Shown here: positions 12,586 to 22,217 of the stretch, one piece after another
Numbering within the stretch: the stretch's first letter is position 1
Layout of the letters: every line of letters begins with the position of its first letter
Source: a virus
Lineage: Duplodnaviria > Heunggongvirae > Uroviricota > Caudoviricetes
Length of the DNA stretch: 22,217 nt
Strand: one strand, 5' to 3'
IMG/VR virus record: IMGVR_UViG_2693429700_000019
Made by a program: the position numbers and the translations under genes
The notes under the pieces: generated by a model
The model's input: the letters and a program-made list of their open reading frames with translations, nothing else
Databases searched by the model: none
What the model was told of the DNA's origin: nothing

Positions 12586-12612
12586 CGCGCTTCGCTTGTC
12601 TGCTGCTTCGCC

Positions 12613-12635
12613 GGGGCATAAAAAATTTATGCCCC
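12613..12635. other. Perfect 10-bp-stem palindrome ggggcataaa-aaa-tttatgcccc, 28 bp after Q stop (possible Q terminator or cos-associated element)
   Basis: Read directly; no U-tract on either side. Confidence 0.5.
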
Positions 12636-13033
12636 GACTCTCCAGCTCCTGTATCAGTCAGATAATTTCACGATGCTTTCCTGCTGATTGCCATCATCGA
12701 CAGTCAGACTCTTACGCAATCCCACCGCGTTGACTGCATGTTCTCGCCGTCTCAGTGCGATTTTGACGGCCTTACCTTTCACCCCATCAAATCAAAAGCC
12801 CTCACGTCTTTTTCACGCTCAGCGTGAGAAATACAGCCATTCTGTTCTATCTCTGCGACATCGTTCAGGGAATGCTATTTACCCCCTGAAACGCGGGCTG
12901 TTCCCCCGTCACCTGCGCGCAGAAAAAACGCGTTTTTTTGTGCACGTACGGATCCTTGACGGATCCAGCCACCACGCGGGCCGGAAGTACAAAAAGTCGT
13001 TCAAAAAAATTGTGCAAACTTGTGCACTATCGT

Positions 13034-13063
13034 GCAAACAAAAAAAGCGCCTTATCGGCGCTT
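13034..13063 (-). terminator. Rho-independent terminator (minus strand) just downstream of the 89-aa gene
   Basis: Minus-strand RNA forms aagcgcc-gataa-ggcgctt followed by TTTTTTTGTTTG. Confidence 0.7.
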
Positions 13064-13071
13064 CAAAAGTA

Positions 13072-13341
13072 TCAATTGTTGCTGTTTATTAATCGCCAAC
13101 CACGAACATATGCTTCATAGGCATCTCTGTGCCTTACAGTTCCAGCCTGGCTAAACGGAATGTTAGCTAAAACTAAATCATTCTGAGCCATAGCGCGTCC
13201 TTCAAGCGCATCTTTTATGCCTAGCTCAAAAGCACAGGCAGCGCATTTGTGCCGACCTTCTTGTCCTTGATATTCAGGGAGAGACAGAAATGTTGGATTA
13301 TAACGATGAGGGTTCTTGCAAATACCTGTTTTAGCCCGCAC
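13072..13341 (-). CDS. Hypothetical small protein (89 aa) with Cys/His cluster; GTG start
   Basis: ORF with SD-like gaggt upstream of GTG; contains C8, H12, H41-K-C43-A-A-C46; followed by a clean intrinsic terminator. Not recognised by me. Confidence 0.5.
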   Translation of the reverse strand: MRAKTGICKNPHRYNPTFLSLPEYQGQEGRHKCAACAFELGIKDALEGRAMAQNDLVLANIPFSQAGTVRHRDAYEAYVRGWRLINSNN

Positions 13342-13470
13342 TTTATTTACCTCATAGGAAAAATATGCGTGCCTTTACAGAGGTGCGTGTAAGCAATAAA
13401 ATATACGACGCACATTTTGATTTACTTCGGAAGGCACGCATATCAGGTTAAGTGAGTCCGACCGAGTTTT

Positions 13471-13500
13471 ACGCCCCAATAGTTGCTGCTATTGGGGCGT
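13471..13500 (+). other. 12-bp-stem hairpin acgccccaatag-ttgctg-ctattggggcgt with short flanking T runs (weak terminator-like or structural element)
   Basis: Perfect inverted repeat read from sequence; TTTT before and TTT after on plus strand. Confidence 0.4.
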
Positions 13501-13705
13501 TTTGCATGGACAATGCCGCGCAATTATCTTGTCGCTCACAATGCGAACGATCTTACAAAAAGGCACATTACTGTCAAGATAATTGATCGTTTTAATCGAT
13601 AGATAATAGACAATCTATTTGTTTAACAGATCGATTATTGAAGTAAGTGTGCCAAATGGAATGATACTGTCTCTATAAACGTGAGCATTTTTCGCGCAGA
13701 TGCTT

Positions 13706-14017
13706 TTACTCAGGAAATAACGCCCGGATATTCCCAGCCATCTGGCTGGTTATCTTAGCCACTGGTGCAGACTGTGCTTCAAACTTTTTTGAGCTGATTT
13801 GTGTCACAGGTAACATCTCATCATCAGCCCATGCGGCCAGTCGGTAAGCCTCTGCCGGATTCGTCTTCAGAAGTGCCAGCCCGGCCAGAAAAGCCACGCG
13901 TTGGCCGCTTTTGCGGGCTTCTGGTGTAAGGCTGTCCAGCCAGGCGCATGCTTCTCCTTCGTTCTTGACGGCGGCGGGCTTCAGATAGAAACTTATCCGT
14001 CTGGTTGGTGTCGTCAT
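13706..14017 (-). CDS. parR: ParR/StbB-like centromere-binding adaptor (type II partition), 103 aa
   Basis: From Met MTTPTRRISFYLKPAAV..WLDSLTPEARKSGQRVAFLAGLALL.. ; resembles plasmid R1 ParR N-terminal region as I recall it. aaggag SD lies inside the last codons of the upstream ParM gene. Confidence 0.7.
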   Translation of the reverse strand: MTTPTRRISFYLKPAAVKNEGEACAWLDSLTPEARKSGQRVAFLAGLALLKTNPAEAYRLAAWADDEMLPVTQISSKKFEAQSAPVAKITSQMAGNIRALFPE

Positions 14018-14021
14018 TGGT

Positions 14022-14981
14022 TTACTCCTTGTCCATTGCGTACAGCCCATTAACCAGAGCAAACTGTGGCACCCCGTCCGCGATGAAAGTCGCATTAACT
14101 CCGCAGGCTTCGCGGATAGCGGGTGCCACAATCTCCGCCCCGCCACCGACAACCATCACCCGCCCGTAACCCGAAAAAACCGCCAGCGCGCGGATCACGC
14201 GTTGTTTCAGTGTTTCTTCCTTTTCACGAATAACCGCCATCAGGCTGGCGTAATGCGCGTCATTGTGGATGTGCTGGCGCAGCCAGGCTTCATTATGGCG
14301 ATGTTCGATAATGGTATTGGCGATGTGGTGACTGGTGCGCATACCGTTAGTGGCCATCACCGACAGTACGGCATCGGCCATAAGAGAAACGCCTACGTGT
14401 GGATCGCAAAACACCTGGCTGATACCTGCCAGTTGCCCCTGAACCTTTGCCACATCCAGCGTGGTTCCGCCCAAATCCACAATCAGCAGGGATTCAAACG
14501 GACTCATGTCAGCCAGTGCTTTAAAGCCAGCCGGAATGGATTCAGGCATAACCCGTACGTTACGGATAGTGAATGCTTCGCCGTTCTGGTACTCCACCGG
14601 GCGCATGACGTTCGCTTTTTTGCGGTTGATGTTGGCCATGTCCGGCTGTGCGTTTGTGTCGAAATATTCGCTCAGTGGCAGGGTAACAACCACATCCACT
14701 TCCTGTGGCGTGATGTCTGATTTGACCAGCGCGTGATGAATGGCAATGACATTCACATCGCTGTACTGGTATTGCGTGTCGGTCGTCTGGACAAAGCGAT
14801 CGCTGACCGGATCAAAACCATAGCGCACGCCATCAAGCATGTAGTTAGCAGGCTGCGAGCCACCGAACGGCGCAGACCATTCCGACTTGAAGCTGTTCGG
14901 GCTGATGGCGTTGCGGCGTTCGCCGTTCTCAGTCCATGCCAGCTTGATGTTGGTGGAGCCGTCGTCGATGTAAATTTTCAT
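14022..14981 (-). CDS. parM: ParM/StbA-like actin-family segregation ATPase, 319 aa
   Basis: Actin-fold signature motifs IDDGSTNIKL (phosphate 1), LIVDLGGTTLDV (phosphate 2), VMVVGGGAEI (adenosine) and overall colinearity with plasmid R1 StbA/ParM as I recall it. Confidence 0.85.
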   Translation of the reverse strand: MKIYIDDGSTNIKLAWTENGERRNAISPNSFKSEWSAPFGGSQPANYMLDGVRYGFDPVSDRFVQTTDTQYQYSDVNVIAIHHALVKSDITPQEVDVVVTLPLSEYFDTNAQPDMANINRKKANVMRPVEYQNGEAFTIRNVRVMPESIPAGFKALADMSPFESLLIVDLGGTTLDVAKVQGQLAGISQVFCDPHVGVSLMADAVLSVMATNGMRTSHHIANTIIEHRHNEAWLRQHIHNDAHYASLMAVIREKEETLKQRVIRALAVFSGYGRVMVVGGGAEIVAPAIREACGVNATFIADGVPQFALVNGLYAMDKE

Positions 14982-15012
14982 GTCGGTTTTCCTTATGTTG
15001 ATTAATTAATCG

Positions 15013-15125
15013 TTTACGGGATTCTGAAATCCCGTTTTTGCCTGTTTTGTGCGCGCTTCATATATCGCTGCGCGTTTTTTGCTCATTTACGGGATTCGTG
15101 AGTCCCGTTTCTGTCTGTTTTTTGT
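15013..15125. repeat. Two ~38-bp direct repeats, each with an internal hairpin and T-rich tail, spanning the A stop codon and the A-parM intergenic region
   Basis: tttacgggattctgaaatcccgtttttgcctgttttgt (15013-15050) and tttacgggattcgtgagtcccgtttctgtctgttttttgt (15086-15125); internal dyads acgggatt/aatcccgt and acggga/tcccgt. Confidence 0.7.
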
Positions 15126-17880
15126 TTCCACTGGTCAGGCCACCCCGCAGCAGGTCTGCTTTGCGGCTGGCGCGTTCAGTGGTTTCACTGATTCTCTGTG
15201 CGTGCTCTGCGTCGCGGATGGCGCGCAGCATGTCAGAAAGCACGGTAACGGGTGTTTTCATGGTGTTCTGGTCCTGCTGAAGTGTGGATGCCAGGCGTGC
15301 GGCGGCTTCAGGGTCTGATGCCCCCAGCTGTGCCAGATAGCTGGCGACCGGGTTATGGCGGATCTCCGTGCTGCTTACGCCATGATTACGGCTCAGACGC
15401 TGCCAGAGCTGCGTGATTCGGCTGTCCGGGCGGGTATCCGGTTTGCGTACAATTTCAAATCCCTGCGGTGCAATGATGCTGCCGTCAACGTACAGACTGC
15501 CGCCCCGTAACAGGTGCTGCATCTGTTGTTCACCGATATGCAGGCCGAGAGATTCAGCAGACTCCCGCCATTCTTTAGCGAGTAACTCGTGGTTATCAGG
15601 CAAAGGCCGCTGCTGTTTGCGGCTCTGTGTCCAGTTCTGCATTTCATCGCTGCTGTTTTTTGCCTGTTTGTCACGAAGCGAACGCATCAGCGCCCGGCGT
15701 TCGTGCCGTTTCAGTGAGCGCATCCATTCATTTACTTCAACGCCGTCAGGAAGCTGCGGCCACGGTGCTGGCCGTTCTTCCGGCTGTTCTGTCCCGTTGT
15801 TGCCTGTTTCCTGTACACGGGGACAGTTATTGCCACGAGTCCAAGGGGCGGCAGGGCCGCCCTGAAGGTCAAAACCATTTTCGCGGGCGCTGTCTTCCGC
15901 TTCCGGTTTACGTCTTACCAGCTTCCAGTTATCCGGATGCGTGCACACACGGGAGGATTCCCCGATGAATGGCGACCAGATCCCGTAAATCTGTACACTC
16001 TGTTCGCCGTAATCGTTCAGCTCATCTGCGAGGTCGTAGGCTGTGCGAATCAGGTAGTCCTTGCGCGGAACAAGTACGCCACCCTGTTTTTCAATGTAGG
16101 TGGCAAAACATCCGGCATCAGCGGCAGCGAGTACCGCATCCATTGCGTCATCCTTCAGCCGTTGCGGGCCTTCCGGGTTGCGTGCCATCTGGCTGGCAAG
16201 GCGGCGGAGTTCACGCCACACCTGACGGGAGGGGATGCCAAAGAACTGGAACTGGCGGACCCGGTGAAGGCGCGCCCAGCCGATGGCTCGCTCCACGCTC
16301 TCGGCCATTGATTTACCTGTTTCGTGGTCAACGCGTGGCTTGCCCGTTTTCGGGTCGATGCCATCCACGGCGCGGCTGTCCAGGTTCTTTCCGATGTAGG
16401 TGGCGATGTAGCTGGTTGGCGTGCCTTTTGAGCCGTCGACGTACTCCGCCTTAAAGCGTGGGGTAATATCATCACCCAGCTCGTGACGATCTTCCTGAAT
16501 GGCAATATCGCGGGTGTGGGACACAATGGTGTCGATTTCTTCCGGATGAGCAAAGACCATCATATGCCAGTGCACGGTGCCGTCATGGTGAGGCTCCACC
16601 GTGCGGATGCCATACCAGCGCAGGCCGTCGCGGTTCAGTTTCTTGCGGACCGCTGCAAAAAACGTGTTAACCAGGTAATCGCTGGAGTCGCGCATGGTGG
16701 CCCCGTTCCATTTGGGATTCGGATGACCGTTCTCTGTTGTGGCGTGGTATTTTGACGGGCAGGTGACAGTTAGAAACACCGCTTTGTCGCCACGGGCTTC
16801 GGCCAGAAGTTCCAGCCCCTTCATGGTGGCCATCATTTCTGCCTTACGGTGAACCGGGTTACTTACTCCCGCGTAATACACTGTCTCGAGATCAATCGTG
16901 AACCCGTCTTCGTTTTCCAGCATGAAACTTTTCAGGAAATCGCGTGTTTTCTCGCGCTGTGCGCGAAACTCGCTTAACGCGTCCTGGCTCAGATAGGGTG
17001 ATGTTTTTCTGGAAACCAGACAGGCGGCGCGGAGTTGTTCTTCTCTCCACTCGCAACGTAACAGCCACAGTTTGCGTTTCCACCATTCCGCACAGGTCAG
17101 GCGAAGGATTGCGCCCGGCAGCAGCTCCGTGTCCGGTTCGTTCCTCCGGTCTTTATCTGTTGTCAGTGCGTCATAATGTGGAGGCATGATGTGCAGGTGT
17201 AACGCCATGCGGGCCAGCATCTGATACGCCTTCAGCGTTACATCCATGGTCAGTTCGCCATCGGTCGCGCCAAAGCCATCGCAGAGTTTTTCGAAGGTGC
17301 TGCTGAACATCGCCGCCGTCATGGTGGCCAGCGTCTGTATCTGGTGTTTGTTGAGCTGCGGCAGGTAAAGCAAATCGTCCAGGCGTTCGCGTCCGGCAAG
17401 GGAGCGATAACCCGGTGTCAGCCAGTGTCCGTCAGTGCGATCCAGACGTTCGAATATTTTGCGCAGGGTTCCGCGTGCATAGCGTTCCGCCTGCCAGCTC
17501 TTTTTGCCTTTCCGGCGATCGGCTTCCTGTTTTTTGCGCAGGAAGGAGAGGTGGCGAATAAGCGGATCGCGCAGATAGGACGGCAGCAGGCGCAGCGAGG
17601 CCATGGCTTCATCCACCGCGCCGCGTGCCTGTTTTCTGGCGTCTCCTGCCAGTGTGATGGTTTTGTCCTGTTTTTCCTGTGCGTCCAGGCTTTTATTAAT
17701 CAGGTTGCCCAGTGGCGTGGCGGAGAACGCCGCATCAGCCATTTCCTGGCGGCGCTCGTTCTCTACCCGGTAGGCATCCAGCCAGGAGGAAAGCGCGGAT
17801 TCAGGAGCGGGGATCCCCGTTCCTTCACGCCCCACTGCGTGGCGCGGTTGTTGCCAGTCCCTGATGTACTCTGCCGTCAT
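15058..17880 (-). CDS. A: Replication initiation protein A (HUH rolling-circle endonuclease, P2 gpA family), 940 aa
   Basis: HUH-type motif ..DGTVHWHMMVFAHPEE.. and catalytic tyrosine motif ..SYIATYIGKNLD.. in the middle of the protein; position upstream of the cargo locus and downstream of early small ORFs as in P2. Confidence 0.8.
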   Translation of the reverse strand: MTAEYIRDWQQPRHAVGREGTGIPAPESALSSWLDAYRVENERRQEMADAAFSATPLGNLINKSLDAQEKQDKTITLAGDARKQARGAVDEAMASLRLLPSYLRDPLIRHLSFLRKKQEADRRKGKKSWQAERYARGTLRKIFERLDRTDGHWLTPGYRSLAGRERLDDLLYLPQLNKHQIQTLATMTAAMFSSTFEKLCDGFGATDGELTMDVTLKAYQMLARMALHLHIMPPHYDALTTDKDRRNEPDTELLPGAILRLTCAEWWKRKLWLLRCEWREEQLRAACLVSRKTSPYLSQDALSEFRAQREKTRDFLKSFMLENEDGFTIDLETVYYAGVSNPVHRKAEMMATMKGLELLAEARGDKAVFLTVTCPSKYHATTENGHPNPKWNGATMRDSSDYLVNTFFAAVRKKLNRDGLRWYGIRTVEPHHDGTVHWHMMVFAHPEEIDTIVSHTRDIAIQEDRHELGDDITPRFKAEYVDGSKGTPTSYIATYIGKNLDSRAVDGIDPKTGKPRVDHETGKSMAESVERAIGWARLHRVRQFQFFGIPSRQVWRELRRLASQMARNPEGPQRLKDDAMDAVLAAADAGCFATYIEKQGGVLVPRKDYLIRTAYDLADELNDYGEQSVQIYGIWSPFIGESSRVCTHPDNWKLVRRKPEAEDSARENGFDLQGGPAAPWTRGNNCPRVQETGNNGTEQPEERPAPWPQLPDGVEVNEWMRSLKRHERRALMRSLRDKQAKNSSDEMQNWTQSRKQQRPLPDNHELLAKEWRESAESLGLHIGEQQMQHLLRGGSLYVDGSIIAPQGFEIVRKPDTRPDSRITQLWQRLSRNHGVSSTEIRHNPVASYLAQLGASDPEAAARLASTLQQDQNTMKTPVTVLSDMLRAIRDAEHAQRISETTERASRKADLLRGGLTSGNKKQTETGLTNPVNEQKTRSDI

Positions 17881-17886
17881 AGTGAT

Positions 17887-18252
17887 TTACTTCGTCATGC
17901 CATTCAGGGTGTCGCGGCAGACTGTAGCCAGCCGCTGAATTTCCAGCACGGTGTCTTCTGTGTCGGCATGGCGATGTGTGATGCGGATGCTGTCGGCAAT
18001 CACATCGACGATTGCAGAGGATGGGCGCTGGTAAATGCCAATAACGGACGGGGTGCCACCTTCAATGCGGTAAAGCCTGTAATTTCCCTCGTGGCTGTCA
18101 ATCATGTAGCGACCATCAATAACAATCTTTCCGTCAGCGAGCTGCGGTACAGACAGGGATTTCAGGTACATGTCATAACGATCACGCACGCGAGCGGCAA
18201 GATCACGCTCTGTGTTGAGCAGGTATTCAAGAAAGTCGTTGGCGAGAATCAT
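17887..18252 (-). CDS. Hypothetical early protein (121 aa), coupled to A (6-nt gap)
   Basis: ORF immediately upstream of A on the same strand; no recognised motif. Confidence 0.5.
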   Translation of the reverse strand: MILANDFLEYLLNTERDLAARVRDRYDMYLKSLSVPQLADGKIVIDGRYMIDSHEGNYRLYRIEGGTPSVIGIYQRPSSAIVDVIADSIRITHRHADTEDTVLEIQRLATVCRDTLNGMTK

Positions 18253-18393
18253 TGCGGCAATCCTCTTGTTACAGATGTGCGAAGGCCTCCCGCCGCAAGG
18301 TGCAGGAAAGGCCCGGAACAGGAATTAATGGAGTTTGTTTTGCTGCCGGATGAGCTGCTGAAGCCCGACGTGGTTTCCGGCAGTTGGAGGTGC

Positions 18394-18639
18394 TCATGCT
18401 CTGATTTCCCTCAGTAGCTGGTTGAACATCTGGGTTAGTGGGTTGCTACACCCAAACGGCATCAGGTTTACCTGATAAGAAAAGCGACCGCCTGTTTTGC
18501 GCTCTTTTCTTGTGACTAAACCGCTGCGCCAGAGACGGCGTAGCTCCGCATTAATGGTTGTGGTTGGTGTATTCAGTGCTGCGGCGATTTCTCCACCGCT
18601 ACACCCCGGATTGGCGGCGATATAGTCCAGAATGGTCAT
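18394..18639 (-). CDS. Small putative winged-helix DNA-binding protein (81 aa)
   Basis: Pattern ..GCSGGEIAAALNTPTTTINAELRRLWRSGLVTRKERKTGGRFSY.. looks like HTH plus wing; overlaps next ORF by 4 nt. Confidence 0.5.
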   Translation of the reverse strand: MTILDYIAANPGCSGGEIAAALNTPTTTINAELRRLWRSGLVTRKERKTGGRFSYQVNLMPFGCSNPLTQMFNQLLREIRA

Positions 18640-18839
18640 CTGCGTGACTCCTGTACCTGTCGGATAAGGTTCACCCGCACCACATTCGTGGCGCAGAAGT
18701 AAGTGCCGTCAGTGAGATAGATGTGATGTGCATCCTTTTCTGAACGGTGTTTGTCGATTGTGGTAATCAGGCGTTCGTCGACTTCGTATTCACGCCCTCT
18801 GGAGGTAAAACGAACGACAGGAAAATGCTTAATTGCCAT
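18636..18839 (-). CDS. Hypothetical small early protein (67 aa)
   Basis: ORF in early operon orientation; no recognised motif. Confidence 0.4.
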   Translation of the reverse strand: MAIKHFPVVRFTSRGREYEVDERLITTIDKHRSEKDAHHIYLTDGTYFCATNVVRVNLIRQVQESRR

Positions 18840-19035
18840 TACGCCTCCTTGGCGTGTGCGAATACCTCCGCGAATGCGGATTGTTTTTACATTTTCTTAT
18901 TTAATCTGTGGTTTTATTTGCTCTGTTATTCGCCAGTGAAAAAGCGTTCAATCTTTTTTATTGAATGAATAATTCGCATAATCCCAATAGCGCAGGCCAC
19001 CGAAATAATCAGAACAAGCCATGAGATAAATATAC

Positions 19036-19278
19036 TCATGCGATATTCCCCAGCTCATACGGTTCAATATGTTCCCCGCATTCTGCGGCACAGATCAGCT
19101 CGGAAAGTTCGTTAAGTGCATCCAGATCATCAGCGTAAAAAGCCACGTCATACAGACTTCGGATTGCTCTGGTCAATGAGTCACGGGCCGCACGTTCAGC
19201 ATGAGCGCCTGATGCACTTAAGCGAAAATAAAAGCGCTCAAGTGCTTTGTTAATGAGAGTTTTATATTCTTTGCCCAT
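19036..19278 (-). CDS. Hypothetical small early protein (80 aa)
   Basis: ORF in early operon orientation, acidic and helical-looking. Confidence 0.4.
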   Translation of the reverse strand: MGKEYKTLINKALERFYFRLSASGAHAERAARDSLTRAIRSLYDVAFYADDLDALNELSELICAAECGEHIEPYELGNIA

Positions 19279-19289
19279 CGCAACGCCCT

Positions 19290-19577
19290 TTAATCTGCTT
19301 TCTGAATTTCAGTTTCTGAATCCATACAGATAATTTCGATATAGGGTTTATCGCCATTAACCTGACGAGCCTTTTCAGCTTCGCTAATGATTTCGCGTAC
19401 GGTCTGGTACGGAAGTTCCACGATCAGTCGCGTGCCGTTCAGATAAACGTAAGTGGCTTCGGCGGCTCCGTTTTTCCCCGCCGGAGCCACTCCATCAATA
19501 GCGGATGCGCGTAATAACAGTTCACCGCGAAAATCAATAAAGCGGATAAATACACCTTGAGTATGGTCTTTAGTCAT
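19290..19577 (-). CDS. Hypothetical early protein (95 aa from Met MTKDHTQG..)
   Basis: Internal ATG at 19577 preceded by aggtg SD; chosen to avoid overlap with the upstream ORF. Confidence 0.45.
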   Translation of the reverse strand: MTKDHTQGVFIRFIDFRGELLLRASAIDGVAPAGKNGAAEATYVYLNGTRLIVELPYQTVREIISEAEKARQVNGDKPYIEIICMDSETEIQKAD

Positions 19578-19587
19578 AAAGCACCTG

Positions 19588-19929
19588 TTATAAATCAGCC
19601 TGTTTAATAAAACTCTGTCCACGCAGCAGACGATCAACCGTGCGAAGCGCTTCGTATAATGTGAAATCCTGCCCGAACTGATTGTCGCCGCTGCTCAGAG
19701 CAAAAATGCGGTTTCCGGTAAACGGATTGCGCGGGCATTTGTGGACCACGATTCCAGCTTTCTCAATCAGCCAGGCATGCTCGCCGATTTGTTTTACTGG
19801 GTAGCCATCCGGCGTTGCGTGTGTATCACTCAGGCTGTAGCGGATGTTGCTGCGTGATGCACTGGTAGCAAAACGGTTAGCGTGGCGTTCTGCACCATTG
19901 CGAAAGCGTGAATTACGTTGCTGTTTCAT
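19588..19929 (-). CDS. Hypothetical early protein (113 aa), basic N-terminus
   Basis: ORF preceded by a 250-bp non-coding gap; not recognised. Confidence 0.45.
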   Translation of the reverse strand: MKQQRNSRFRNGAERHANRFATSASRSNIRYSLSDTHATPDGYPVKQIGEHAWLIEKAGIVVHKCPRNPFTGNRIFALSSGDNQFGQDFTLYEALRTVDRLLRGQSFIKQADL

Positions 19930-20181
19930 GTTAAAGACTCTGTACAGATTTAATTATTCCGGCATAGAGGCCGAACTCAAAATATTTGCGATTAAATCGC
20001 ATCGCATTGTTTTCACGTTTTGCGGACTGCTGGTTCATTTTCGTTTGCCTCCGCACATGAGAATTGCGCCGCTTAAGAGGTAACCGAAGTTAATTGATAG
20101 TATTACAATTAACATAAGGTCCAATTTGTCCATGCCACACATAATTACCCTCATTGCAGTAGTTGTGGGTTGTCAGGTTTC

Positions 20182-20388
20182 TCACCCGATAAACCAGATA
20201 ACAAACGCTATCAACATCGCCCCAATAGCTGCCGGGAAAAGTCCTTTGGTATAAGCGGCGATATATTCAATGCTGAGTTCAATAAAGCGTTCTTTATGTC
20301 CCGTTAACTTGCGAAACAAATAGATCTCTATTACGCCTATCTCAATAAAAACAAGGGTCAGAATGGCGCTGATGATATGGCTGGTCAT
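20182..20388 (-). CDS. Small hydrophobic membrane protein (68 aa, two predicted TM helices)
   Basis: AILTLVFIEIGVIEIYLF and LFPAAIGAMLIAFVIWFIG hydrophobic segments; directly downstream of cox. Confidence 0.5.
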   Translation of the reverse strand: MTSHIISAILTLVFIEIGVIEIYLFRKLTGHKERFIELSIEYIAAYTKGLFPAAIGAMLIAFVIWFIG

Positions 20389-20394
20389 TTATGA

Positions 20395-20682
20395 CTAAAG
20401 TCCCAGCCACAACAACCATGCGTCGCGGCGTTCTTTCGGTTGCTCAAAAAACGCTTTGCGCATGCCTTCGTTAAATGCTGGCAGATATACCCAGTTTTCT
20501 GATGCACGCGTCTTTACTGAACCTGGTTTCACAAAGTCAATTGTTGGTAGCTTTGCTGCGTCAATCATGGTTCTGACTGTGGATTCCTTGCGGCCGATCA
20601 TCTTGGCGAATAGTTGATATGGCACCGCTTCAAGTGGATATGGTGCTACCTGAATGAACCCCCCAAGCTCTGATTCGCTCAT
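20395..20682 (-). CDS. cox: Cox-like excisionase / early-promoter regulator
   Basis: ..VPYQLFAKMIGRKESTVRTMIDAAKLPTIDFVKPGS..ENWVYLPAFNEG..RDAWLLWLGL closely parallels P2 Cox as I recall it; divergent from C. Confidence 0.85.
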   Translation of the reverse strand: MSESELGGFIQVAPYPLEAVPYQLFAKMIGRKESTVRTMIDAAKLPTIDFVKPGSVKTRASENWVYLPAFNEGMRKAFFEQPKERRDAWLLWLGL

Positions 20683-20756
20683 TGTGGTAATCTCCCTAAT
20701 TCGTTCGAATGGCTCAAAATGGCTTATATCGGCTTATTTGAGTGTTTTTATGTTTG

Positions 20757-20802
20757 TGCCCGATGTGGCATGTTGTGATGGGGGATATGCCCGATATGGC
20801 AT
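20757..20802. promoter_or_regulatory. Immunity-switch operator candidates: 15-bp direct repeats tgcccgatgtggcat / tgcccgatatggcat, 31 bp apart
   Basis: Read directly in the cox-C intergenic/5' region. P2 C repressor is known to bind direct repeats at Pe. The second repeat overlaps the probable C start codon. Confidence 0.5.
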
Positions 20803-21116
20803 CTTTGTCAAGCATGGGTGAAAAATTTCGCCTGATTCGTGAAGCAGAAGGTATGACCCGCCAGGAGTTTGCGGATTGTGTTGGGCTGCCTTATGGGACG
20901 GTAACTAACTATGAGGTGAGGGGGAAGCAAGTAACAGAGGGTGCCTTACTTAAGGTTACGAAACACCCTAAATTTAAGAAGTATGCTTATTGGTTATCAA
21001 CAGATGAAACGATGCCGGAGGTCGGGCAAATTTCTCCGGCTCTCTCTCTTGATGGTTCCTGCAATTCGGAGGGAGATCGCGTTTCAACCGAAACAATCCA
21101 AAAATTATCCCGCTGA
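20796..21116 (+). CDS. C: Immunity repressor, P2 C-like
   Basis: ..EKFRLIREAEGMTRQEFADCVGLPYGTVTNYE....KFKKYAYWLSTDETMPEVGQISPALSL.. parallels P2 C (..GVPYGTLSYYE...QFTKYTLWFMTNQIAPESGQIAPALAHFG). Start chosen at Met MASLSS (gggggat SD); ORF track begins upstream at 20742. Confidence 0.8.
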   Translation: MASLSSMGEKFRLIREAEGMTRQEFADCVGLPYGTVTNYEVRGKQVTEGALLKVTKHPKFKKYAYWLSTDETMPEVGQISPALSLDGSCNSEGDRVSTETIQKLSR

Positions 21117-21212
21117 GGCCAGAAAACTGGTTAGACCTGCTTTTTGTCTGGTCTGATTATTGCTGGAAAGAGGCTGGAGAAATTGTAGAGCGGTTCATTG
21201 GAGGGCTTCGTA

Positions 21213-22217
21213 ATGTCGATTAAGAAGCTCGAAGATGGTCGTTATTTGCTGGACATCAGGCCGAACGGACGCAAGGGAAAGCGCGTGCGTAAGGTATTTG
21301 ACAAAAAATCGGTAGCGGTGGCCACTGAACGCTACATCATGGCGAACGCTGAAAAGCGGGAATATATACAGGGCTACCGTGATCGTCGAACGCTAAATGA
21401 TTTGCTTGAGTTGTGGTGGATGTATCACGGCCAGCACAGGCGTAAGGCGGAAGAAGACCGAAAACAACTGCGCAACATAATCAATGAGCTTGGCGCTGAT
21501 ATGCAGGCTGTGGATCTTGATAAGCTGAAAATTATCGCGTGGCGTTCTCAAAAGATAGCTGATGGATTGAAACCGTCATCTGCTAACAGGTACATGAATC
21601 GGTTATCCGGAATGTTTACCGTGCTGAAAAAAATAGGTCTTTGGGATGCAGAACATCCAGTAAGGGGAATTTCTATTCTTTATGTATCTCCACGAGAAAT
21701 GGCGTTCCTGTCACAGAAGGAAGTGGCGCTATTGCTCGATACACTGGAGGGCGACTACTGGCGTGTTGCGCTTTTGTGTTTAAGCACAGGGGCGCGCTGG
21801 AGTGAAGCTTGTAAGCTTCGTGGTGAACAGATAGTTCATAACCGTGTAACGTTTCTTGAAACCAAAAATGGCCGGAAGAGAACAGTGCCAATTTCGCAGG
21901 CAGTTTGTGAGGCGATCAAAACCAGAGAAACAGGCGGCTTGTTTGAGGTGAAGTACCGGGAATTCTGCCTGGCGCTGAAAAGAGTTAAGCCCGATTTACC
22001 AAAAGGCCAGGCTGCACATGTGCTGCGGCATACGTTCGCCAGCCATTTTGTGATGAACGGAGGAAACATTATTGCGCTTCAGAAGATTCTTGGTCACGCA
22101 ACCATTCAGCAAACAATGGCATATGCGCATTTTGCACCGGATTACCTGCAGGATGCGGTGGCCCTTAATCCGCTGAAAGGTGGCGTAAGTGTCCACGCAG
22201 TGTCCACGGGGGATTAA
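21213..22217 (+). CDS. int: Tyrosine integrase, P2 Int family
   Basis: MSIKKLEDGRY..RPNGRKGKR.. N-terminus and C-terminal ..LCLSTGARWSEA..HNRVTF..KNG..RTVPIS....HVLRHTFASHFVMNGGNIIALQKILGHATIQQTMAYAHFAPDYLQDA.. (R...H-x-x-R...Y catalytic pattern). Stop is the last codon of the window. Confidence 0.9.
   Translation: MSIKKLEDGRYLLDIRPNGRKGKRVRKVFDKKSVAVATERYIMANAEKREYIQGYRDRRTLNDLLELWWMYHGQHRRKAEEDRKQLRNIINELGADMQAVDLDKLKIIAWRSQKIADGLKPSSANRYMNRLSGMFTVLKKIGLWDAEHPVRGISILYVSPREMAFLSQKEVALLLDTLEGDYWRVALLCLSTGARWSEACKLRGEQIVHNRVTFLETKNGRKRTVPISQAVCEAIKTRETGGLFEVKYREFCLALKRVKPDLPKGQAAHVLRHTFASHFVMNGGNIIALQKILGHATIQQTMAYAHFAPDYLQDAVALNPLKGGVSVHAVSTGD

Follow-up and report, generated by a model that had tools for sequence, protein, structure and literature searches.

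The window analysed here is the whole 22,217-nucleotide stretch of the IMG/VR virus record IMGVR_UViG_2693429700_000019, and this study concerns its minus-strand segment 17,887-20,388, which lies between cox and the replication initiator gene A. The original prediction had described seven small open reading frames (ORFs) in this segment, had noted that a homologue of the P2 gene B was missing, and had taken the region for a mosaic of accessory early genes. By its sequence relationships, the window is assigned to a P88-like (Xuanwuvirus, Peduoviridae) prophage of Escherichia coli, not to P2. ORFs are designated below by a w followed by their length in residues, and the features of the locus are as follows.

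20395..20682, minus strand: cox, 95 aa, first gene of the proposed early operon, just outside the segment (Pfam Phage_Cox, E = 1.3e-22; 56% identical to P2 Cox).
20182..20388, minus strand: w68, 68 aa, with two predicted transmembrane segments (phrog_14475; hydropathy), starting 6 nt past the cox stop.
20035..20154, minus strand: w39, a candidate hydrophobic micro-ORF, unannotated (hydropathy; homologue in the related locus L076).
19931..20038, minus strand: w35, a candidate basic micro-ORF of 35 aa, unannotated (GGAGG 9 nt upstream; three divergent alleles).
19588..19929, minus strand: w113, a DUF4761 protein (Pfam PF15958).
19290..19577, minus strand: w95, acidic, 95 aa counted from ATG (phrog_3800).
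19036..19278, minus strand: w80, an acidic DUF4754 protein (Pfam PF15946, E = 2e-53).
18926..19039, minus strand: w37, a 37-aa peptide with a single transmembrane segment, ATGA-coupled to w80 (RefSeq coding sequence WP_000021652.1; annotated as a membrane protein in P88).
18841..18880, minus strand: invariant hairpin TCCGCATTCGCGGA and AAGGAGG ribosome-binding site before w67 (column identity over 22 alleles).
18636..18839, minus strand: w67, basic, 67 aa, ATGA-coupled to the winged-helix gene (phrog_3459).
18394..18639, minus strand: w81, a minimal winged-helix protein of 81 aa (Pfam MarR_2 and HTH_24).
18253..18393, minus strand: putative deletion scar of a cargo hotspot, 145 bp (size classes in relatives; remnant of a derepression gene at 18328-18363).
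17887..18252, minus strand: w121, a putative divergent DUF5405 protein of 121 aa (phrog_3237), its stop 6 nt before the A start.
15058..17880, minus strand: A, replication initiator, 940 aa, last gene of the proposed operon, outside the segment (Pfam Phage_GPA, E = 5.8e-132).

All seven predicted ORFs were recovered with their coordinates and lengths, and each corresponds to a RefSeq coding sequence in a 100%-identical record, but the earlier list had omitted the 37-aa ORF, two micro-ORFs and the 145-bp scar. With the small ORFs included, the coding density of the segment is 89%. The segment is indeed richer in AT than the late genes, with a GC content of 47.7% vs 55.7% in the late genes and 57.4% in A. 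The 4-nt overlaps ascribed to several of the seven ORFs hold for one pair (67/81 aa), whereas the remaining ATGA overlaps involve ORFs that were not on that list. As read from the sequence, genes are spaced by 6-11 nt or overlap by ATGA, and most ORFs have a recognisable ribosome-binding site or a coupled start. End-to-end matches to a PHROG family were obtained for each of the seven ORFs and for w37. The hairpin at 18841-18880 with its ribosome-binding site shows 99-100% column identity over the 22 alleles, compared with 90-97% in the flanking coding DNA, and sits in the sole sizeable intergenic gap of the conserved core. On the opposite strand, this hairpin is followed by a T-run and has a terminator-like score. 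Rfam gave zero matches in the segment or in the entire window.

The assignment to P88-like phages comes from the interval 17800-20700 of the window. Xuanwuvirus P884B11 is 97.7% identical to it in DNA over 99% of its length, 72% of it aligns with phage P88 (NC_026014) at 93.2% identity, and one E. coli RefSeq chromosome record is 100% identical across it. The region was matched in 1400 of 5426 complete E. coli genomes. The prophage adjoins pdxB; integrase, C and cox lie on one side of the segment, and the 940-aa A lies on the other, with ParM and a partition gene behind it. Identity of this A to the A proteins of P2 and 186 is 31-35%. For comparison, we used 80 IMG/VR loci (A 96-99% identical) together with E. 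albertii and Salmonella prophages; a scan of genome contigs with A as query gave 4 loci only.

Across these relatives, the genes of 113, 95, 80, 37, 67, 81 and 121 aa keep one order in practically all loci long enough to include them. Between 65 and 79 related loci have the ORFs intact, and the pooled ratio of non-synonymous to synonymous polymorphism (pN/pS) is 0.05-0.31: 0.05 for DUF4761, the lowest of the operon, 0.14 for w67, 0.16 for w80, 0.20 for w95 and 0.31 for w37 (w37 intact in 67 of 72 loci, w121 in all 79 of 79). Because the order is fixed, the ORFs are intact and purifying selection acts on them, six of the listed ORFs (113, 95, 80, 67, 81 and 121 aa) and w37 are, as judged from conservation, the core of this lineage and not cargo. 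Between phages with near-identical A, single genes show amino-acid identities of 74 to 100%, a pattern that we read as allelic mosaicism through recombination at fixed gene content. Real variability is limited to two spots, namely the stretch after cox and a hotspot between the winged-helix gene and the 121-aa gene. In a curated phage collection, tblastn with w95 and w67 returned the same 14 Xuanwuvirus-like records only, and in large protein collections the families of w113, w95 and w121 were found in Enterobacteriaceae only.

The predicted absence of B was borne out. In tblastn over the whole window, P2 B as query gave E > 1 only, and phrog_235 (B) and its relatives phrog_14551, 602 and 5349 matched no window ORF at E <= 0.01; Pfam has no model for B. 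The largest ORF between cox and A has 121 aa, against about 166 aa expected for B. In 50,697 phage records, tblastn detected B in 76, all but one >=95% identical, and the B-bearing records are P2-genus phages of Escherichia, Yersinia and Salmonella. B was not found in the early regions of 186, P88 and phage 520873. From this distribution, B appears to be an invention confined to the genus Peduovirus. Because B is confined to P2's own genus, its absence here is expected and leaves no gap to explain; P2, the baseline of the original prediction, was the wrong comparison for a Xuanwuvirus window. In pairwise BLASTP of all window ORFs against all P2 and 186 early proteins, cox and A were the only accepted matches. 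A match of w80 to B (E = 0.013, 19-sequence database) was dropped, as it had no PHROG or Pfam support, and so was a match of w95 to Cox (E = 0.013), which had no PHROG, Pfam or PDB-profile support. The C-terminal extension of A, about 200 aa long, was considered as a stand-in for B, but PHROG profiles phrog_91 and phrog_6857 span it too, and it is not peculiar to this phage. P2 engages DnaB through B, and 186 depends on host DnaC. The most economical inference by analogy is that P88-like phages behave like 186 in helicase loading, in which case this phage would most likely load DnaB via host DnaC.

We consider it likely, at a probability of about 0.7, that the segment forms the central part of a P88-like prophage's early lytic operon, with its core genes fixed, B absent as the lineage norm and cargo restricted to two places. 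By analogy with P2, transcription would run leftward from an early promoter between C and cox, and would yield one polycistronic unit of cox, w68, (w39, w35), DUF4761, w95, DUF4754, w37, w67, the winged-helix gene, the scar, the DUF5405-like gene and A. Translation is probably coupled along this gene string, because the gaps are so short or replaced by ATGA overlaps. The six genes from DUF4761 to the DUF5405-like gene, together with w37, would then represent the lineage's fixed replacement for the orf78-B-orf80-83 block of P2. The segment is an ordinary early operon that is already catalogued, its genes annotated as hypothetical, and is uncharacterised.

Several points weigh against this reading. 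Consensus scans for promoters and terminators in the segment gave no excess over shuffled sequence. The w121 protein itself matched DUF5405 with 14 bits (E = 0.069), below the Pfam cut-off of 21.6 bits, and the AlphaFold2 (AF2) models of w113 and w121 are of moderate confidence (predicted local distance difference test score, pLDDT, 68-71). All sampled relatives have an A that is 96-99% identical, so that core status covers this lineage only, and core genes conserved throughout a lineage may still serve in host takeover or anti-defence.

The cargo hotspot was recognised from the size of the junction between the winged-helix gene and w121, which measures 145 bp in the window and in 16 of 75 informative relatives; in the others it spans 0.87-2.76 kb. 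Cargo in relatives includes an Ead/Ea22-like gene, a small membrane protein with an SPFH/Band-7 lipoprotein, and a 183-aa helix-turn-helix (HTH) protein; 64 of 84 loci have a gene for a 76-aa protein of the 'Derepression' family immediately ahead of the 121-aa gene. In the sole relative scanned with Rfam (L011:4572-5056), the derepression gene is closely preceded by isrK (67 bits) and C4 (79 bits). The scar retains the last 12 codons of the derepression gene at 18328-18363 (tblastn, 92% over 12 aa) and the ATGA-coupled start that the Ead-like gene uses in relatives. A 42-aa ORF across the scar is neutral (pN/pS 0.87), and RefSeq annotates a partial 'ash family' pseudogene at this place. These remnants indicate that the hotspot was emptied by deletion and that the isrK/C4/derepression module was lost here. 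Its loss may affect whether the prophage can be de-repressed, and might leave the prophage unable to be induced.

The second variable spot follows cox. The 68-aa ORF, predicted to be a membrane protein, has two hydrophobic segments by hydropathy. In related loci, w68 occurs almost only alongside this cox/C immunity type or close variants, with L076 as the exception, and the DNA downstream of it is likewise tied to this immunity type or close variants. Compared with a 69%-identical allele, w68 has a pN/pS of 0.39 (moderate constraint). An apparent 250-bp gap after w68 contains w39 and w35. The likely start of w39 is at the MCGMD codon, which would give a protein of 35 aa, and its stop overlaps the w35 start (ATGA). 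The w39 homologue in L076 shares 22 of 35 residues (pN/pS 0.39); w39 is absent from L025-type alleles and had no match in Pfam. The w35 motif RxYFExGxYAG is conserved, and the ORF is present in three divergent alleles (pN/pS 0.39-0.52). In L025-type loci (L025:2050-2508; L059, L063, L064 and L066), w35 is fused in frame to DUF4761 to give a 152-aa protein, and the database cluster of this fused form (P0042) has 1217 member sequences; in the window, a stop codon and a 1-nt frame offset separate the two. A hairpin at 19987-20006 was considered as a terminator and is probably not one, as it lies inside the conserved w35 ORF. It would be a long shot that the trio w68/w39/w35 is an unrecognised early superinfection-exclusion or membrane-targeting module, or that DUF4761 is a new kind of early effector.

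The 81-aa protein, correctly predicted as winged-helix-like, matches MarR_2 with 34.8 bits (cut-off 27) and HTH_24 with 32 bits (cut-off 21.9) in Pfam. A full MarR protein is about 140-150 aa long and has dimerisation helices on both the N- and the C-terminal side of the winged helix-turn-helix (wHTH). The match of w81 covers the wHTH part of the MarR models only, its match to phrog_1687 is limited to positions 69-149 of 162, and at 81 aa w81 was rejected as a canonical MarR and described as a minimal wHTH. In phrog_19053, positions 84-134 match w67 and positions 162-243 match w81. Alleles of w81 fall roughly into two classes (about 75% and 88-99%), and the gene is absent from 6 relatives. The gene borders the hotspot and resembles cargo more than any other of the conserved genes does. 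An 84-aa wHTH protein from the early-left region of Shiga toxin (Stx) lambdoid phages is 45% identical to w81. In the Stx1a-converting phage LC567825 (L171, 3001-5853), the gene for this protein is followed by two Ead/Ea22-like genes and a 44-aa ORF (MHTAFEFW...). Ead/Ea22-like genes and the 44-aa ORF are also cargo of the P88-like hotspot, which suggests module exchange between two phage families.

Could the interval nevertheless be a mosaic of accessory genes that were each acquired separately and serve host takeover, superinfection exclusion or anti-defence? The well-known hotspots of P2-like phages are gpA-gpQ and the tail region (PMC9122126; bioRxiv 10.1101/2024.10.15.618418), and a 2026 survey located 8% of the defence systems found in P2-like prophages to the integrase-GpA interval (PMC13586616), a figure that is compatible with the hotspot between the winged-helix gene and the 121-aa gene. 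The GC content is lower than in the rest of the phage, the spread of alleles at 74-100% identity where A is 96-99% identical implies frequent recombination, and w68, w39 and w35 occur only with certain immunity modules. In addition, w81, the Ead/Ea22-like genes and the 44-aa ORF are common to the Stx lambdoid early-left region, and 186 carries the host-directed fil and dhr at a comparable position. However, the gene set and order are fixed, intact and under purifying selection, and it is alleles that vary, not content. A search of PADLOC-DB found no defence system component, only generic matches of w81 to CARF/Csa3 HTH and a chance-level match of w80 (E = 0.013), and the sole true cargo site holds no cargo in this window. 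The families do not occur scattered over other elements but stay within this prophage lineage, and genes of a C-repressed lytic operon would give a lysogen no protection. We regard the mosaic as unlikely for the interval as a whole. What stands of it is w68, which is variable and tied to the immunity type, whereas the other six ORFs are fixed core. The defence side of the proposal fared similarly: the int-to-A interval is a documented minor defence site (PMC13586616) and w81 has relatives in an Stx accessory region, but the PADLOC result is null and the hotspot empty.

Among the core proteins of the proposed early operon, w113 matches DUF4761 over its full profile (positions 1-105 of 105, 231.9 bits, E = 8.9e-70, above cut-off). 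Its N-terminal 30 residues are conserved, basic and disordered, and its core of five strands and one helix is well predicted by AF2. A relative of the DUF4761 protein was not found in PDB by sequence or model search. An exhaustive HMMER search with the DUF4761 profile gave 24 clusters and no domain fusion suggesting function; the core also occurs in a few stand-alone proteins of 64-94 aa, mostly 64-72 aa. As a remote possibility, DUF4761 might stand in for B, without homology to it, by recruiting the replicative helicase of the host, or might be an RNA/DNA-binding regulator of the early transcript. In w95, the N-terminal 60 residues are the conserved part, and natural frameshift variants have the C-terminal 25 residues replaced. 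An alternative-frame ORF of 31 aa (19262-19357, minus strand) overlaps the w95 3' end, and several divergent database alleles have a 1-nt indel that links the conserved N-terminal 70 residues of w95 to this frame, giving a basic C-terminus (…NPISKLFVWIQKLKYRKQIKGRCDGQRI) instead of an acidic one. No Pfam match and, by sequence and profile search, no PDB match was obtained for w95. The match of w80 to DUF4754 extends over profile positions 1-80 of 80 (179 bits, E = 2e-53, above cut-off); the protein has an isoelectric point of 4.9 and is probably all-helical. PDB sequence searches with w113, w95, w80, w67 and w81 gave no relatives; apart from their own DUF/PHROG families, w95, w80 and w67 matched nothing in Pfam, PDB or the defence models, and NCBIfam returned generic wHTH matches only. 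In the literature collection searched, no paper mentions DUF4761, DUF4754 or the RefSeq accessions of the proteins.

The gene next to A, w121, is best described as encoding a divergent member of DUF5405 (PF17399), the family to which Pfam assigns P2 Orf81, P2 Orf83 and 186 CP83; this placement draws on profiles and on a structure model. Pfam DUF5405 was matched by 7 of 10 close members of the w121 family (best E = 8.7e-6). In hhalign, the w121 family aligned with Orf83 and CP83 over 75 columns, the full length of Orf83/CP83, at P = 1e-3 but only 22% probability. The best BFVD match of the w121 AF2 model (pLDDT 68) is the DUF5405 protein of Salmonella phage vB_SalP_TR2 (E = 1.2e-3, probability 1.00, target template-modelling score 0.65, 90 columns). 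A helical N-terminal extension of 40 aa is present in w121. A scan of viral contigs with the alignment of P2 Orf83 and 186 CP83 gave 99-100% P2 copies only and added no diversity. The position upstream of A is likewise shared: only 6 nt separate the w121 stop from the A start, Orf83 of P2 overlaps A, and CP83 of 186 is one gene upstream. According to a note in the 186 record, translation through the upstream orf84 is needed for translation of A, and by analogy translation of w121 probably feeds ribosomes into A. The condition that the original prediction had set for its own failure, matches of all ORFs to conserved P2-family early proteins of known function, thus applies in part, as w121 falls in DUF5405, although this family likewise has no assigned function.

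These proteins also provide the candidates for a non-homologous substitute of B, that is, a conserved small protein acting as DnaB loader or lagging-strand factor, with DUF4761 and the DUF5405-like protein as the best candidates. The last gene of the operon is that for the rolling-circle initiator A, and strongly constrained proteins such as DUF4761, with its pN/pS of 0.05 and conserved basic tail, are encoded before it; DUF5405 genes stand beside A in P2, 186 and the window, and PHROGs labels the Orf81/Orf83 families 'replication initiation protein' (annotation only). Such a substitute is nonetheless very doubtful, as there is no sequence or profile similarity to B and no ORF of B's size, 186 replicates without B, and the 186 record calls CP83 'not essential'. 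The probability that these frames, or some of them, are open by chance alone, in prophage DNA that is non-coding or in decay, is next to negligible: the scar ORF is neutral, and w39 and w35 are short, unannotated and represented by few alleles, but the seven ORFs and w37 are intact in 65-79 loci with pN/pS 0.05-0.39, match PHROG families end to end, and mostly have recognisable ribosome-binding sites or coupled starts.

Some further observations concern the surroundings of the segment. The gpA-gpQ interval of the window (12586-14981) corresponds to the classical defence hotspot of P2-like phages; ParM and a gene of a plasmid-partition family lie downstream of A at 13706-14981, and the rest of the interval is an AT-rich 1.1 kb (45% GC) with a single annotated ORF of 89 aa. 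A near-identical RefSeq record differs from the window by 6 mismatches in 8,418 bases over 13800-22217. The element in that record is truncated; the first 172 bases of the window did not align to that record, so we make no claim of truncation for the window prophage. Contigs labelled as Vagococcus sp. WN89Y (L006) and as a Planococcaceae metagenome-assembled genome (L008) carry the prophage A at 85% and 92% identity, and contamination or mis-binning of these assemblies is likely.

With this prophage type very common, its early operon is among the most widespread wholly uncharacterised phage gene sets in E. coli. Three results narrow the focus: six of the listed genes and w37 form a core, B is a genus-specific addition, and the sole real cargo site is empty here. 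The genes of main interest are DUF4761, DUF4754 and DUF5405, for what they may do in replication or early control.

Compared with known systems, the early-left region of Stx phages (LC567825) belongs to a different family and operon, and window ORFs other than w81 have no match there. The window resembles C4/isrK antirepressor modules (P1/P7 c4-ant; Gifsy-1 isrK) through its relatives, in which isrK and C4 stand upstream of the derepression gene, but it has itself no Rfam match and only 12 derepression-gene codons left. Phage 186 (apl-cII-fil-dhr-CP79...CP83-orf84-A) likewise lacks B, has small genes past its excisionase/regulator gene and has CP83 near A; it differs in that cII, fil, dhr, CP79-81 and orf84 have no homologues in the window, and in its CI/Apl switch and Tum antirepressor. 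P2 (cox-orf78-B-orf80-orf81-orf82-orf83-A) shares with the window cox as first and A as last gene, small packed genes between them, a DUF5405 gene before A and C/Cox-type immunity. In contrast to P2, the window lacks B, orf78, the DUF2732 gene (orf80) and the DksA-like zinc finger (orf82), its ORFs except cox and A belong to other PHROG families, and its A is 31% identical and about 180 aa longer. The closest system is P88/Xuanwuvirus. P88 has a longer, different Cox and is without w68, w39 and w35, and its stretch from the wHTH gene to w121 holds about 1.7 kb of cargo (Ead/Ea22-like gene, membrane protein, SPFH lipoprotein and derepression protein) that is deleted in the window, but it has the same order of DUF4761, w95, DUF4754, w37, w67, wHTH gene, w121 and a 940-aa A, with 76-99% protein identity.

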